From positions 9,956,728 through 10,020,727 of the forward strand of contig NC_057749.1 in assembly GCF_004010195.1 (NCBI RefSeq): a stretch of DNA of 64,000 bases. The letters run 5' to 3'. The position numbers and the translations under genes were made by a program. Under the pieces are notes generated by a model. The model did no database searches and was not told the origin of the DNA. It was given only the letters and a program-made list of their open reading frames with translations. The DNA is from Chiloscyllium plagiosum (lineage: Eukaryota). Positions within the stretch are counted from its first letter, which is position 1; each line of letters opens with the position of its first letter. Positions 9,116-54,990 of this stretch are shown one piece after another.

Positions 9116-12100
9116 TGAAATGCCCTGAAGATGTGTGCTGCCTGATTTCAGATTTTCCCATATGTTAGTTGGAAAGGAGATACTGAGGTTTTATTACAAC
9201 GGTCTGCAGTGTGGGATTCCAGACCTCACTTGGTTTGGGTCAGATGGGGTTTGGTGAGTGTTCCAGCAGTTTGATCAGGACATCCATGGACAAGTCACTG
9301 AGTCATCAACTGCTTTCTTTGGGCTTGCCTCCAGTCAATGGCTGCTTTGGACCAAGATCTAGGCTGAACTCTTGGAATGAAATCGAAAAATCAGGGCATC
9401 CTGCTTTAGCTCTACATATGGTGCAAAGCTGACTTTTTTTTTAAAATGTGGACACTGAGTCTGTTCTGAAAGATGACCAAGACTACAAAATTCTTAAGGG
9501 GATGACGCGATGAATGTTTCCATAATGTAATTCCAGAACAAAGGGGAATTAACTCAGTGTATGGGGCAGGCCATTTTCGATTGTGATTGGGAGGAATTCC
9601 TTAATTCAGAAGGTGGTGAATCTTTGGAGCTCTCTACCCTGGATGAAGTTCAGCCGTTGAGCATGTTCAAGACAGAAGTTGATAAATTCCTGGATGCTAC
9701 TAATGGAATAAAGAGAAATAGCATTGTGGAGGTGACTAGTCATGACCCTGAGTGATGGGCATGCTCAACAAACTGAATAGCCCACTCTTGTTCCTGTTTT
9801 GAGTGTTGGAAAGTTGAAATCTTTTTAGAATTGCACCATTATATGAAATTATATGTGATTTAAAAAAACTATAGTGTTTCCACAAATAGGTGGGGTTTCA
9901 GTTTGAGTTTTGCAAGTATATGTGCTTTTGAATTTAGATTTGTTTAATTATATTTTTAAAATAAAAATCAAAATAGTAAGATGACTCATGCTTTGTGACC
10001 TACTAAAGAATTTTATGAATGTGTATGGACATGTGTATGAATAGACTAATGGCAGGTATAGAGTTACACCCTAAATAAACTTCTGCCTTTGCAAATAATT
10101 TTAACTCAAGGATAGAATTATAGTCTGACAAATTGCTACCCTTCATCTTCAATTATATAAAGGATTTGTAATCCTAGGCTAACATATGAATATTAAAGCC
10201 TAGTGCACTCTTAAAACCCCACTGCCCAGATGGAGAATTTGTATTATGACAGGAACCACCTTGGCTGTTTTCCAATCTATGTTTTGTCCTGTAAACAAAC
10301 ATTAAGAACTACCTGGGAACACAGTGTAATGCAGTTCTGCAACACGTACCCTTGCATATGTAGACATAACTGAAAAAGATTTAGCAACTATTTTTTTCTC
10401 TTTATTCTAGTGGGCATAAGCCCAGCATTGTTGTCCATCCCGAGTTGAACTGAGTGACCTGCAAAGCTATTTCAGAGAACACTTAAAAGTCAACATGTTG
10501 CAGTGGGTCTGAAGTCACCTTATAGATCAGACTAGGTAGGGAAGGCGGATTTCCTTCCTCACAGGATGTTAGTGGGCAAATTGGATCTTTACAACAATGG
10601 TTACATGACCACTGTCAGACCAGCTTTTATTGAATTCACATTTCACCATCTGCTACAGTTAGATTTGAATCCAGGCTTCTGAACATTAGTCTGGGCTCCG
10701 AATTATTTACCTGCTCATTCATTCATTCTATAATTCACACATTATAGAATGATCGTCTGTGACTATAATTATGATCTTGAATATAATTATATTTACTTTT
10801 GCTTTATACAGTTCATCTGTCAACATGTTAAGTTTCAGACAGAATACAGATTAATCCATTCAGAAAAAAATGTGGATTATTATTCAGTTGTTCAAAGTCC
10901 CCCAGCATCTTGTGATAAATGTCTTCTCTTTATGTGCATGTAACATTTTTCATCTTGTGTTGTAACTTGAATGTGCGTTTAGTACTAAGAATAGAGAATC
11001 TAGTGACACTGATGGTGTCATCCAGTGATTGGAGGATGGAGCAGAAGTTTCAACAGGAATGAGAAACATTTTATCATCAAACAACAAAGCAAACAGGGTC
11101 TGTTCAAAAAGTCGCTGAGTTCCAGCAGCAGAGAGCAACTTTTCATCAAAATAAGGAATGTTTGAATGGAAGTTAGTTACATTTCATAAGCTGGTCATTT
11201 CTTTGGAAAAATGCAGTAAACAACAGTATATTAAAATACTGTATACATGTTGATTAAGATTTTGTGATTGATTGTGGTAGTGAAGGTAAATTCACTTATT
11301 GTTATAAAAACAAAAAGAAGTGGAGAAACTCAGTAGATCTGGCAGCACCTGTGGAGAGAGAAAGAGTTATCTAGGGACACTTCTTCGGCAGAACAGGAAA
11401 ACTTTGGGAGAAGACTCACATTGGGCTCAAGATGTTAACTCCATTTCTCCGTCACAGGTGCTGCTGGATATGCTGATTTTTTTCCAGCAATTTCTGGCAT
11501 CTGCAGTATTTTGCTTTTGATCACATACTGTTATTCTGGAGTCAATTGACCAGTCAGAGGTCTGTACACTTGCAGTTGAATATGGAAGTGCACCAATTGC
11601 TATCTGAGTTACTTTGCTGTAAGCTTTGTAACACTGATGTATCATCAGTAAACTCAGCATTGAAATCTATGTAACCATGTGAAGTTGCTGAATTGATCCA
11701 TTATTTATCCACTGAGCAAATAATTAGGAATCCCATAGTCAAGTGTAAAAACATATTTTAATGGCATCATGTTGCAATTGATTTTACACAACCTGTCTGG
11801 CTCTGAATATTTAATTTTACAATCATGTAATTGTTTTCCTTCAGTGCAAGTGTTTGAGATTTTAAAAAAATAAAATGTTTTTAACCTTTTTTTTGTTTAT
11901 CTCTTATCTCTCTCAATTCCATCCATTATTTGCAACCTTTAAAGGCAAATGCCGTCATCCTACAGGACTATAGGGCTGCCCTTTCATTAGACAGAGATGA
12001 CTGACGATGGTTTAACCTGAGGGTCCCCATGCCCCGGAAGAGAGAAACGTCCTTTATGATAACCTCAGCTGGTTTGGGGAATTGAACCCATGCTGTTGGC

Positions 12101-23921: not shown

Positions 23922-24096
23922 GGAGAAAGTGAGGACTGCAGATGCTGGAGGTTACAGTAGAGAGTGTGGTGCTGGAAAAGCACAGCTGGTCAGGCAGCAT
24001 CCGAGGAGCTGGAGAATCGACAATTCAAATCCTGATGAAGGGCTCTTGCCTGAAACGTCGGTTCTCCTGCTCTTCGGATGCTGCCTGACCTGACTT
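23922..24096 (-). mobile_element. ORF-less palindromic Penelope-derived element with hammerhead motif and 11-bp TSD
   Basis: TSD tttatttccca at 23911-23921 and 24097-24107; AATC-CTGATGA-AGGGC tctt GCCT-GAAAC-GTC-GGTT at 24028-24063 (+). Confidence 0.75.
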
Positions 24097-24522
24097 TTTA
24101 TTTCCCATCCAGACTGTACTTTCATTCCTGACAACATGAACTAGAACAGTGAGGCAATTTCCTCATCATATTATCTATTCTGGGGACACGGTTTCAAATT
24201 TTGCCACAGTAGATGGTGAAACTGAATTCAATAAAATGTTGAATTAAGAGTTTAATGATTACAGTGAAACTGTTGCTAACTATTGGAAAAGCTAATCTGA
24301 TTCACTAATGTCCTTCAGGGAAGGAAACTGCTATCCGTACCTGATCGTGTTTACATATGATTTCAGATCCACTGCATAGAGTTGACAGCCCTCTGCGCAG
24401 TTAGGTATGGCCAATAGATGCTGGTTTAGCTAGCAATGCACACATACTTTTAGTGGATTTCTTAAAAATAGATTGAGTTACTCAAAAGAGCTGGCAGCAT
24501 CTGTGGAGAGAAAAACAGAGTT

Positions 24523-26253: not shown

Positions 26254-26452
26254 GGAGAAAGTGAGGACTGCAGATGCTGGAGGTCAGAGCTGAAAAATGT
26301 GTTGCTGGAAAAGCGCAGCAGGTCAGGCAGCATCCAAGGAGCAGGAGAATCGACAATTTGGGCATAAGAAGGGCTTATGCCCGAAACGTCGATTCTCCTG
26401 CTCCTTGGATGTTGCCTGACCTGCTGCGCTTTTCCAGCAACACATTTTTCAG
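26254..26452 (-). mobile_element. ORF-less palindromic Penelope-derived element with 15-bp TSD
   Basis: TSD ctttatcatcatatg at 26239-26253 and 26453-26467; ~80-bp near-perfect inverted arms. Confidence 0.85.
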
Positions 26453-26774
26453 CTTTATCATCATATGACATTACATCTGATGATCATAATCTGATGATTG
26501 TTAACATAAAGGGTGAGCTACCAAAAATAATTCTCACTTCTGGTTTCAAAAATTAATGTCTGCAAGAAAAATATCTGCATGAGTCTCATTTAATATGTGG
26601 AAAATTGATTGCCATGATTTTTGTGTGTGCACATCGGTTTAGGGCAGGACATGGGTGTAATATGTACATATAGAACCTGGTGATGATATTTTCTCATCAA
26701 ATGGAATTGGGAACTAAACATGAGTAGTAGCAAAGACCAATCTGCATCATCAATTGGAATTAGTATGCTTTTTT

Positions 26775-41323: not shown

Positions 41324-41595
41324 GTCATAGAAATATACAGCACGAAACAGACCCTTCGGTCCAACTCATCCATGCCAATCAGTTATCCTAACCTAATCTA
41401 GCCCCATTTGCCAGCACTTGGCCCATATCTCTCTACACCTTCCCTAGTCATATCCCCATACAAACATATTTTATGTGCTGTAATTGTACCAGCTTCCACC
41501 ACTTCCTCTGGCAGCTCATTCCATACACGTACCACCCTCTGTTTGGAAAGGTTGCCCCTTAGGTCCCTTTCATATTATTCCCCTCTCACCCTAGG
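41324..41595 (-). mobile_element. CR1 3' fragment
   Basis: Same tail and WNELP region as other copies. Confidence 0.8.
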
Positions 41596-41749
41596 TTTTG
41601 CCTGAACTTTCTCTCTGAAATCTCTCCTGCCTGTAAGAATCTATGTTTGAATTTACCATTTGCCATGGGGTGTGTTTAAGGGATGTTGTGGGTATTAGGA
41701 CAGCTCCTTTGTTAAGTTGTGATTGAGTTGGTTGGGTATTCAAATAAGA

Positions 41750-41958
41750 GTCAGAAAGTGTGGTGCTGGAAAAGCACAACAGGCCAGGCAGCACCCGAGG
41801 AGCAGGAGAGCTGATGCTCCGGGCACAAGCCCCTCCTGATGAAGGGCCCATAACCAAAACATTAACCCTCCCACTCCCCGGACACCACTCAACCAACTGT
41901 GCTTCCCCAGCGCCATACCCCTTGACTATGATCTCCAGCATCTGCAGTCCTCAATTTC
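41750..41958 (+). mobile_element. Palindromic Penelope-derived element with heavy T>C divergence
   Basis: Arms homologous to 26254-26452; CTGATGAAGGGC core; tail gatctccagcatctgcagtcctca. Confidence 0.8.
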
Positions 41959-42004
41959 CTGTTCCAGTAGTAAATAAAGACTCTGGGTTCAAGTATCACT
42001 CCAA

Positions 42005-42476
42005 GACTTTGTACAAGATATTGGGTTTGGCCACTTTTGGAATACTGAGTTCAATGCTGGTCTCCCTGCTAAAGGAAAAATGTTGTTAAACTTGAAAAGA
42101 TGCAGAAAAGGTTTACAAGGATATTGCCAGGGTTGGAGAGTTTGAGCTGCAGGGAGAAACTGAACAGGCTGGGGTTATTTTCCCTGGAGCGTCAGAGGCT
42201 GAGGGGTGAGAAGGTTATAAAATCATAAGGGGCGTGGATAGGGTGAATAGCCAAGGTCTTTTCCCCAGGGTAGGGGAGTCCAAAGCTAGAGGGCATAGGT
42301 TTATGGTAAGAGGGGAAAGATATAAAAAGGACCAAAGGGGCAACTTTTTCATGCAGAGGGTGGTGCACATATGGAATGAGCTGCCAGAGGAAGTGGTGGA
42401 GGCTGGTACAATTACAACATTATGGACGAGTTGTACCGAAGGGTGTGTTTCCATGCTGTACAAATCTATGACTCTA
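42005..42476 (+). mobile_element. CR1 3' fragment
   Basis: ORF 42234-42500 DRVNSQGLFPRVGESKARGH...WNELPEEVVEAG. Confidence 0.9.
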
Positions 42477-52417: not shown

Positions 52418-54990
52418 AAACATAGAACATAGAACAGTACAGCACAGAACAGGCCCTTCAACCCACGATGTTGTGCCGACCACTGATCCTCATGTATGCA
52501 CCCTCAAATTTCTGTGACCATATGCATGTCCAGTAGTCTCTTAAATGCCCCCAATGACCTTGCTTCCACAACTGCTGCTGGCAACGCATTCCATGCTCTC
52601 ACAACTCTCTGTGTAAAGAACCAGCCTCTGACATCCCCTCTATACTTTCCTCCAACCAACTTAAAACTATGACCCCTCGTGTTAGTCATTTCTGCCCTGG
52701 GAAATAGTCTCTAGCTATCGACTCTATTTATGCCTCTCATTATCTTGTATACCTCAATTAGGTCCCCACTCCTCCTCCTTTTCTCAAATGAAAAAAGTCT
52801 GAGCTCAGTCAACCTCTCTTCATAAGATAAGCCCTCCAGTCCAGGCAGCATCCTGGTAAACCTCCTTTGAACCCTCTCCAAAGCATCCACATCTTTCCTA
52901 TAATAGGGCGACCAGAACTGGACACAGTATTCCAATGCGGTCTAACCAAAGTTTTATAGAGCTGCAACAAGATCTCACGACTCTTAAACTCAATCCCCCT
53001 GTTAATGAAAGCCAAAACACCATATGCTTTCTTAACAACCCTGTCATTTGGGTGGCCATTTTAAAGGAGCTATGTACCTGCACACCAAGATCCCTCTGTT
53101 CCTCCACACTGCCAAGAATCCTATCCTTAATCCTGTACTCAGCTTTCAAATTCGACCTTCCAAAATGCACCACTTCGCATTTATCCAGGTTGAACTCCAT
53201 CTGTCATCTCTCAGCCCATCTCTGCCTCCTGTCAATGTCCCGCTGCAGCCTACAACAGCCCTCTATACTGTCAACGACACCTCCAACCTTTGTGTCGTCT
53301 GCAAACTTGCTGACCCATCCTTCAATCCCCTCATCAAAGTCATTAATAAAAATTACAAACAGTAGAGGCCCAAGGACAGAGCCCTGTGGACACCACTCAC
53401 CACTGACTTCCAGGCAGAATATTTTCCTTCTACTACCACTCGCTGTCTCCTGTTGGCCAGCCAATTCTGTATCCAGACAGCTAAGTTCCCCTGAATCCCA
53501 TTCCTCCTGACCTTCTGAATGAACCTACCATGGGGAACCTTATCAAATGCCCTGCTGAAGTCCATATACACCACATCCACAGCTCGACCCTCATCAACTT
53601 NNNNNNNNNNNNNNNNNNNNNNNNNNNNNNNNNNNNNNNNNNNNNNNNNNNNNNNNNNNNNNNNNNNNNNNNNNNNNNNNNNNNNNNNNNNNNNNNNNNN
53701 NNNNNNNNNNNNNNNNNNNNNNNNNNNNNNNNNNNNNNNNNNNNNNNNNNNNNNNNNNNNNNNNNNNNNNNNNNNNNNNNNNNNNNNNNNNNNNNNNNNN
53801 NNNNNNNNNNNNNNNNNNNNNNNNNNNNNNNNNNNNNNNNNNNNNNNNNNNNNNNNNNNNNNNNNNNNNNNNNNNNNNNNNNNNNNNNNNNNNNNNNNNN
53901 NNNNNNNNNNNNNNNNNNNNNNNNNNNNNNNNNNNNNNNNNNNNNNNNNNNNNNNNNNNNNNNNNNNNNNNNNNNNNNNNNNNNNNNNNNNNNNNNNNNN
54001 NNNNNNNNNNNNNNNNNNNNNNNNNNNNNNNNNNNNNNNNNNNNNNNNNNNNNNNNNNNNNNNNNNNNNNNNNNNNNNNNNNNNNNNNNNNNNNNNNNNN
54101 NNNNNNNNNNNNNNNNNNNNNNNNNNNNNNNNNNNNNNNNNNNNNNNNNNNNNNNNNNNNNNNNNNNNNNNNNNNNNNNNNNNNNNNNNNNNNNNNNNNN
54201 NNNNNNNNNNNNNNNNNNNNNNNNNNNNNNNNNNNNNNNNNNNNNNNNNNNNNNNNNNNNNNNNNNNNNNNNNNNNNNNNNNNNNNNNNNNNNNNNNNNN
54301 NNNNNNNNNNNNNNNNNNNNNNNNNNNNNNNNNNNNNNNNNNNNNNNNNNNNNNNNNNNNNNNNNNNNNNNNNNNNNNNNNNNNNNNNNNNNNNNNNNNN
54401 NNNNNNNNNNNNNNNNNNNNNNNNNNNNNNNNNNNNNNNNNNNNNNNNNNNNNNNNNNNNNNNNNNNNNNNNNNNNNNNNNNNNNNNNNNNNNNNNNNNN
54501 NNNNNNNNNNNNNNNNNAGGTTCCAATCAATATTGGGAAAGTTAAAGTCACCCATTACAACAACCCCACTACGTCCACACTTTTCCAAAATCTGCCGACC
54601 TATGCTTTCTTCCATCTCCCTGCTGCTATTGGGGGGCCTGTGGCAAACCCTCAACGAGGTGACTGCTCCCTTGCTGTTCCTAATTTCCACCCATACTGAC
54701 TTGGTAGGCAGATCTTTCTCGACAATGGAAGCTTCTGTAGCTGTGATACCCTCTCTGATTAGTAGTGCACACCCCCTCCTCTTTTACCCCCCTCCCTATT
54801 CTTTTTAAATGCTCTAAACCCTGGAACATCCAGCAACCATTCCTGCCCCTGAGAAACCCATATCTCTGTTATGGCCACAACATCATAGCACCAGGTACTG
54901 ATCCATGCTCTAAGTTCATCACTTTTATTCCTGATACTCCTTGCGATAAAGCAAACACACTTTAACTGATCCCTTGGTTCCTTCCCAGGA
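52418..54990 (-). mobile_element. Long CR1 LINE (endonuclease + RT) spanning the assembly gap, in DUOXA intron 2
   Basis: APE motifs ARSIRNK...DVVAITE.W and MGDFNFPNIDW right of the gap; [29 protein letters not shown] left of the gap; frameshifted. Confidence 0.9.
53601..54517. other. Assembly gap (917 N)
   Basis: Run of N. Confidence 1.

Follow-up and report, generated by a model that had tools for sequence, protein, structure and literature searches.

How did a single copy of a fold-back repeat come to carry T>C changes on one strand throughout both arms of its stem, with the adjoining unpaired tail left as it was? The question is raised by positions 41750–41959 of the window (the whole stretch of Chiloscyllium plagiosum DNA that was analysed, 64,000 nt in length). 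This segment is one copy of a very abundant repeat with a unit of about 220 bp; the fold-back copy spans about 41747/41750–41959 on the + strand, and its centre is near 41834–41846. A preliminary description had interpreted the locus as a hairpin retroelement whose minus-strand RNA was edited by ADAR before reverse transcription, so that the edited bases became fixed in the genome. The features on which the argument below depends, including two sister copies oriented opposite to the 41750 copy, are the following.

41742–41749, no strand: putative left target-site duplication AAATAAGA, AT-rich, matching AAATAAAGA at 41972–41980
41750–41835, + strand: left arm, an inverted copy of the right arm (profile alignment)
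41784–41921, + strand: hypermutated zone, containing 21 of the 22 T>C changes together with G>A changes at CpGs, both original ones and those created by T>C (profile counts)
41836–41860, + strand: decayed hammerhead-like core by the palindrome centre, recognized by eye (CTGATGA, stem II, and AAAAC, which is GAAAC in the family)
41846–41929, + strand: right arm; its homologue is the 3' terminal stretch of a Penelope-like element (profile alignment)
41930–41959, + strand: unpaired tail of the Penelope-like element, about 30–35 nt, unchanged (T>C at 0 of 10 positions)
41972–41980, no strand: putative right target-site duplication AAATAAAGA, read from the sequence
26254–26456, − strand: young sister copy whose stem is nearly perfect, with 76 Watson-Crick pairs; the duplication TTTATCATCATATG borders it on both sides (alignment and folding)
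23922–24107, − strand: sister copy, 5'-truncated at insertion, with the duplication TTTATTTCCCA (alignment)

The duplication pair AAATAAGA/AAATAAAGA is short and diverged, so the borders of the 41750 copy are approximate. The flanking segments 41477–41600 and 42100–42210 are high-copy repeats, with a contig depth thousands of times that of unique parts. Elsewhere in the window, positions 53601–54517 are a run of 917 N.

The anatomy of the family was deduced from 30 young copies that are 93–97% identical to the copy at 26254. In these copies, two inverted arms separated by a small centre form a stem of about 80–85 bp, and only one end bears an unpaired extension, about 35 nt long. The border is precise at the tail end and ragged at the other, and the target-site duplications are variable, at roughly 10–16 bp. 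The family consensus folds with about 86–90 pairs. The tail is located 3' of the right arm, and almost all of the 106 tail matches in the DNA examined are preceded by a right arm; many copies are 5'-truncated with the tail retained. No LINE partner with the same tail was found in this material, and a LINE as the source of the tail was rejected. One of the 30 young copies (L030:1467–1700) has a tail at both ends and forms a full palindrome of about 234 bp, as would be expected if both cDNAs started at the outer site, or if a cDNA snapped back.

A pattern search showed that a second sequence is often present directly upstream of the right arm and tail. The reverse complement of this sequence is, in locus L072, a fragment of an open reading frame; in some copies the antisense ORF piece is joined to the right arm at variable points. 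In L072 itself, a 76-aa ORF piece containing a ...YIGETG... motif lies in the same orientation as the right arm and tail, about 300 nt upstream of them. The piece matches the Pfam GIY-YIG family weakly (E=0.0056, 17.4 bits, under the cut-off of 22.6), and the assignment of the repeat to Penelope-like elements (PLEs) hangs on this match; the DNA further upstream in L072 is masked, and a PLE-type RT was for this reason not seen. Its atlas neighbours are eukaryotic GIY-YIG clusters at 0.94. The order of segments in L072 is the GIY-YIG ORF fragment, about 300 nt, a hammerhead-like core (CTGATGA...GAAAC), the right arm, and the tail. A separate neighbour element, a LINE-type RT fragment on the minus strand (L072:758–1423, Pfam RVT_1, E=3e-22), starts right after the PLE tail of this locus. 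Boxes of the hammerhead core were seen by eye in older copies, and the young subfamily is without the CUGAUGA box. In searches of 2.8 kb of the window and 10 loci, Rfam hammerhead models produced no match at E<=1, and the Rfam matches otherwise obtained were weak, sub-threshold, and miRNA-like. Visual inspection of the element head gave no convincing pol III A or B box.

One account of PLE insertions (PMC8557442) describes frequent 5' truncation, an adjacent inverted and 5'-truncated copy, and a 30–40-bp tail at one end. In the PLE layout, the hammerhead is followed about 100 nt on by an AC-rich region where reverse transcription starts (PMC11167929). In the same study, a purified PLE protein cut both target strands and extended them, and it started reverse transcription at two neighbouring internal sites, one on either side of the tail. 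Judged from its sequence, the 41750 copy is the fold-back end piece of a Penelope-like element, consisting of an inverted arm, a sense arm, and the tail. On the same grounds, the strand with the tail at its 3' end is taken as the PLE sense strand; in the 41750 copy this is the + strand of the window. The assignment follows from the orientation of the GIY-YIG ORF in L072, and is in agreement with truncations that come from the other side with the tail kept. The supposed hairpin retroelement is thus of a known kind; its layout is that of a PLE end piece with a tail.

Base changes in the 41750 copy were counted relative to a profile composed of its 29 nearest genomic relatives and the young-copy consensus. 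Because the 29 relatives were chosen by likeness to the 41750 copy, the profile is biased against counting T>C. On the + strand of the stem (41750–41929), 22 of 43 T's are changed to C, while only 1 of 37 A's is changed to G; the 22:1 ratio corresponds to a binomial p=2e-5. Other changes in the stem are C>T (5/47), G>A (11/50), and 4 transversions. The two arms are affected to a similar extent, with T>C at 8/15 and A>G at 0/22 positions of the left arm, and T>C at 14/26 and A>G at 1/13 positions of the right arm. The T>C positions extend from 41784 to 41921, plus one at the ragged 5' end. None of the 10 T's in the tail is changed to C (stem vs tail, Fisher p=0.003). By comparison, ordinary copies (n=86, with at least 140 aligned stem positions each) have 2.79 +/- 1.33 T>C changes (maximum 10) and 1.76 +/- 0.95 A>G changes (maximum 4). 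At 18 of the 22 T>C sites, C is found in at most 10 of 92 other copies; four sites (profile positions 4, 36, 123, and 178) are polymorphic in the family, which leaves about 18 private changes. The comparison by eye with sister copies, which had suggested roughly 18 T>C changes in both arms, one or two A>G changes, and an unaffected tail, is therefore in good agreement with the counts.

The changes are also one-sided. In 21 of 22 cases only one partner of the stem position is altered, and compensatory changes number 0. Since the changes are one-sided and both arms are hit at a similar rate, the arms were altered independently, on one strand.

The bases of the 41750 copy were confirmed in contigs of an independent run, X2; these are Logan contigs rather than the raw reads that had been suggested for this purpose. 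The X2 contigs differ from positions 41782–41953 by 1 substitution and 1 gap, and show 0 differences from the flanks at 41644–41776 and 41929–42109. Contigs of X5 match the flanks of the copy, and among the pieces listed none crosses the core. A contig of organism B (X13), which has a second species label, aligns with positions 41765–42104 with 16 substitutions and 9 gaps. Among the differences listed for organism B, 41886 is the sole one of the 22 sites that has T there. The T>C event is older than the split from the second species label. In organism B the flanks have 4–6 differences in 136–150 bases, about equal to the stem region of the 41750 copy (16 in 340). The stem has thus diverged since the split about as much as the flanks have, which implies that nothing is ongoing in situ.

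Some of the changes in the right arm appear as TG>CA, and had been interpreted as T>C followed by CpG decay. Four TG dinucleotides of the right arm are now CA, and of the CpGs that T>C changes would have made in the 41750 copy none survives, which bears this interpretation out; of the 8 original CpGs, 3 survive. The hypermutated copy L097 of the young subfamily (T>C 11 vs A>G 1) still has its new CpGs, which supports an order in which T>C came first and CpG decay later. Separately, APOBEC-type G>A editing was considered for the 11 G>A changes and rejected: most of them are located at original or T>C-made CpGs, and the G-rich left arm has 1 G>A.

Six other hypermutated copies were found, and both polarities exist among them, four being of the T>C type and two of the A>G type on the tail strand. 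The T>C-type copies, in each of which the tail is spared, are L043 (T>C:A>G, 16:1), L051 (14–15:1), L098 (17:3), and L097. When these four and the 41750 copy are pooled, 80 of 207 T's in the stem are changed vs 1 of 54 in the tail (p=4.5e-9). The A>G-type copies are L062 (A>G:T>C, 19:3), which has an unedited sibling, L091, and L082 (9:2). L043 and L051 were obtained with a query that included the tail, L097 and L098 with a T>C-specific pattern, and L062 and L082 with a stem-only query; since the four T>C-type copies came from T>C-biased queries or patterns, the numbers 4 vs 2 give no polarity ratio. The hypermutated sample comprises seven copies, drawn from the examined loci and eight short stretches. 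A search with the L062 hairpin returned unedited relatives of its subfamily, and no further edited copies. Mirror-image patterns, representing the T>C and the A>G form, were also counted. The strict pair gave 4 vs 0 matches, and 2 of the 4 are hypermutated, both already known. The loose pair gave 205 vs 116 matches, which have different denominators and are not comparable, so that no ratio is claimed; roughly a third or more of the listed matches are the antisense ORF piece of the PLE, which is another sequence. Among 93 full-length copies, none of the mirror type (T>C in the left arm and A>G in the right arm at paired sites) was found.

Several of these loci have peculiarities of their own. 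L062 (1414–1652) and L091 (71–312) belong to a subfamily with about 30 nt inserted between the right arm and the tail; L062 is heavily A>G hypermutated and L091 is not, making them a clean edited/unedited pair. L098 (G000:C2:5700395–5700725) has 4 G>C transversions in its left arm (e.g., GAGCAGG to GACCACG), which are unexplained by an editing model. In L043, a tail variant, TTTCTAC, and about 10 flank bases are repeated about 740 bp away on the other strand (725–775 and 1460–1500). The second TTTCTAC tail is preceded by unrelated sequence, and could be either an inverted local duplication or a tail-only insertion. Within the window, an old and weak family copy at 11321–11489 has T>C 10 vs A>G 1 along with many transversions. 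It could represent another hypermutated copy, of greater age, and with profile scores of 25.3 vs 22.5 its orientation is uncertain.

What process could leave such a record? RNA folding was calculated for both strands of the 41750 copy. The minus-strand RNA folds with 78 pairs (51 Watson-Crick and 27 G-U) at −112.9 kcal/mol, and the plus-strand RNA with 53 pairs at −68.9 kcal/mol. The neighbours of changed adenosines were tabulated for the strand on which the changes read as A>G. In the 41750 copy alone, the fractions changed by 5' neighbour were A 8/13, C 4/14, G 7/11, and U 3/3, and 5' G was not depleted. In the seven copies pooled, where 107 of 267 A's are changed, the corresponding fractions were U 11/15, A 43/76, G 30/82, and C 23/94 (chi-square p=1e-5). 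A 5' A or U was preferred over G (54/91 vs 30/82, p=0.004), with the same trend in both polarity classes. The low value for 5' C may be due to reversion of newly made CpGs. Sorted by 3' neighbour, the pooled fractions were G 34/92, A 38/79, U 19/42, and C 16/54 (overall 107/267), and no preference for 3' G was seen. Thus, the depletion of 5' G that had been put forward as a mark of ADAR fails in the 41750 copy taken alone, where 7 of 11 such sites are changed, and is seen when the seven copies are combined.

Four features argue for an ADAR-type process: 40–50% of the sites are changed, the changes are of one type on one strand, they stay within the stem, and they arose independently in both arms. 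We consider it probable that an RNA stem of ~85 bp was hyper-edited in an ADAR-type manner, that the product was fixed by PLE retrotransposition, and that CpG decay followed. ADAR would be the agent, and the element would have existed as RNA at the moment of change; the cluster would then put both arms on a single RNA molecule at that time, in line with the earlier proposal that the whole palindrome moved as one RNA. The proposal that a minus-strand hairpin RNA was edited fares less evenly. The changes are strand-pure, stem-confined, and non-compensatory, and affect about half of the sites, as expected for promiscuous A-to-I editing of a long duplex. A minus-strand template, on the other hand, is not the natural reading, since the + strand has the orientation of the PLE ORF, with the tail at its 3' end. 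It would require an antisense RNA whose two ends coincide with the borders of the element.

The events leading to the present copy may have been as follows. An earlier genomic fold-back copy would have been transcribed, and its RNA would have formed a stem of about 85 bp with nearly perfect pairing. In both arms, roughly half of all adenosines would have been deaminated to inosine by an enzyme of the ADAR type, with the single-stranded tail spared. PLE reverse transcription would have written the inosines as G:C pairs into a new AT-rich site, and the CpGs created by the changes would have decayed later to yield the TG>CA pairs.

The polarity of the changes calls for a further step. Editing of sense RNA followed by ordinary target-primed reverse transcription should result in A>G on the tail strand, and the 41750 copy has the reverse. 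A>G changes on the RNA-template strand are present in L062 and L082 and absent in the 41750 copy, where T>C occurs on the PLE sense strand. On the other target strand, a cDNA that began at the inner site may have given rise to the stem of the 41750 copy, and the outer-site cDNA to its tail. The palindromic stem would let the two cDNAs anneal, giving a scarless copy with canonical borders, in which the strand swap would be visible via the editing marks only. When the inner-site cDNA copies the stem, the stem should be the complement of the edited RNA, with T>C on the tail strand; when the outer-site cDNA copies it, the A>G type should result. Both polarities could thus be explained by priming of PLE cDNA from both target strands. 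The same route also predicts mirror-type copies, of which the 93 full-length copies contained none, and this counts against it. Asymmetric positions between the arms, which could reveal inversion of the stem relative to the tail, were sought, and none was usable: the two arms match too closely, and at the sites that would have been informative the base has itself been altered. We tentatively suggest that ADAR marks on palindromic Penelope fold-backs act as natural strand barcodes, and that the integrated stem may come from either of two PLE cDNAs in vivo; we regard this idea as somewhat less likely than not.

Alternatively, an antisense transcript, i.e., one of the window minus strand, could have been edited by ADAR and used as the template, with reverse transcription proceeding from the stem end through the stem and the complement of the tail. 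Canonical family borders at both ends, with the target duplication adjacent, are seen in the 41750 copy, in L043, and in L051, which makes such a template unlikely, even though T>C on the tail strand would follow from it directly and the minus-strand RNA of the 41750 copy still folds well. A read-through RNA would need a 5' end exactly at the tail end, or else the source flank would have been carried along, and no such flank is seen. The antisense palindrome RNA does contain a sequence that resembles the right arm, with the AC-rich stretch in which PLE reverse transcription starts internally (PMC11167929). The strand with the 3' tail is nevertheless the PLE sense strand, and truncations occur on the other side.

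Processes other than the editing of double-stranded RNA are less probable still; they include deamination of deoxyadenosine in the cDNA of an RNA:DNA hybrid at the time of integration, copying of the palindrome by an error-prone polymerase, and an in-situ process acting on cruciform DNA. The polarity, with changes on the side of the first-strand cDNA, fits deamination of cDNA adenines, yet a hybrid would include the tail, which is spared in the five pooled copies, and copies of opposite polarity exist. A 5' A/T is the motif of polymerase eta errors, which the pooled 5' A/T preference resembles, and the 3'-G preference of ADAR is absent in the pooled data. Error rates of polymerases are, however, far below what is needed to alter half of all sites in one event, as would have to be assumed here. 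An in-situ process acting on the cruciform is contradicted by the comparison with organism B, where the stem has diverged no faster than the flanks. A subfamily with C at these sites, GC-biased gene conversion, simple age, and errors of sequencing or assembly, several of which the preliminary description had itself raised, are very improbable: while 4 of the 22 sites are polymorphic in the family and the stem motif CACAACAGGCC is common to the 41750 copy, L036, L047, and L056, the nearest relatives (40 scored of 2834 candidates) are only 73–77% identical, an exact genome scan for a two-change motif plus the tail gave 4 places of which only the 41750 copy and L043 are hypermutated, the 22:1 imbalance and the lack of compensatory pairs are unlike GC-biased conversion or a compensatory subfamily, just 4 transversions indicate a copy that is not very old, and the independent contigs agree on the bases of a locus that is also present under the second species label.

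Penelope-like elements are the least understood class of retrotransposons, and the only biochemical clue to their integration is one in vitro study (PMC11167929). The long perfect RNA stems formed by their fold-back copies are ideally suited to promiscuous A-to-I editing. Should edited RNAs now and then return to the genome, every copy made in this way would record the nucleic-acid strand from which it originated, and the occurrence of both polarities hints that the record is readable. If true, marks across hundreds of thousands of copies could resolve the PLE integration pathway. Under the ADAR-type reading, the germline of a non-mammalian vertebrate would also carry heritable traces of host RNA editing, and the abundant hairpins would be, or would have been, a large source of dsRNA.

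Fold-back PLE copies have been described before, and a return of edited retroelement RNA to the genome has been proposed before. A literature search that joined Penelope-like elements and ADAR retrieved, by titles, unrelated subjects only, and a search on A-to-G hypermutation of genomic retrotransposon copies found none on PLEs. Genomic write-back of edited retroelement RNA is said to have been treated by Knisbacher and Levanon in 2015. Hyper-editing of long dsRNA by ADARs is described by Porath et al. 2014 (PMC4365171), and write-back of edited retroelement RNA into genomes was proposed and searched for by Zaranek et al. 2010 (PMC2873906). The copies described here resemble ADAR hyper-editing in their dense, strand-pure clusters of A>G or T>C within a duplex, in the proportion of sites affected (about 40–50%), and in the pooled preference for 5' A/U over G. 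They differ in that the host sequence is a PLE fold-back in a non-mammal, in that the 41750 copy has the opposite polarity with respect to the element's sense strand, and in the absence of a 3'-G preference.

In LINE-1 twin priming, reportedly described by Ostertag and Kazazian in 2001, two cDNAs that are primed on the two target strands and copied from a single RNA produce an insertion with its 5' part inverted and its 3' part in sense orientation. The PLE enzyme itself extends both strands in vitro (PMC11167929), and a palindromic template, in contrast to twin priming, leaves no inversion scar.

PLE pseudo-LTRs contain minimal hammerhead ribozymes (Cervera and De la Pena 2014, PMC4209133), and that report also describes paired hammerhead motifs on opposite strands, about 100–700 bp apart. 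In the family studied here, CUGAUGA, stem II, and GAAA can likewise be recognized by eye on the sense strand, close to where the right arm begins. Unlike those ribozymes, the family has no Rfam hammerhead match in the sequences searched, the GAAA box is mutated in the 41750 copy, and the young subfamily is without CUGAUGA.

The closest likeness is to insertion units of EN+ PLEs (Craig et al. 2021, PMC8557442; Frangieh et al. 2024, PMC11167929), whose tandem and inverted insertion structures are termed "still undefined" in the former. The shared features are a fold-back of the 3' terminal stretch, a tail, about 35 nt long, that is confined to one end, variable AT-rich target duplications, frequent 5' truncation, and a hammerhead-like core upstream of the AC-rich stretch and tail, with a putative GIY-YIG ORF upstream in the same orientation in L072. 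In contrast to those units, the fold-back here is minimal (about 185 nt plus the tail) and extremely abundant. Moreover, the loop of the young subfamily is inherited, and the hairpin itself seems to be copied as a unit, rather than only remade at each insertion.
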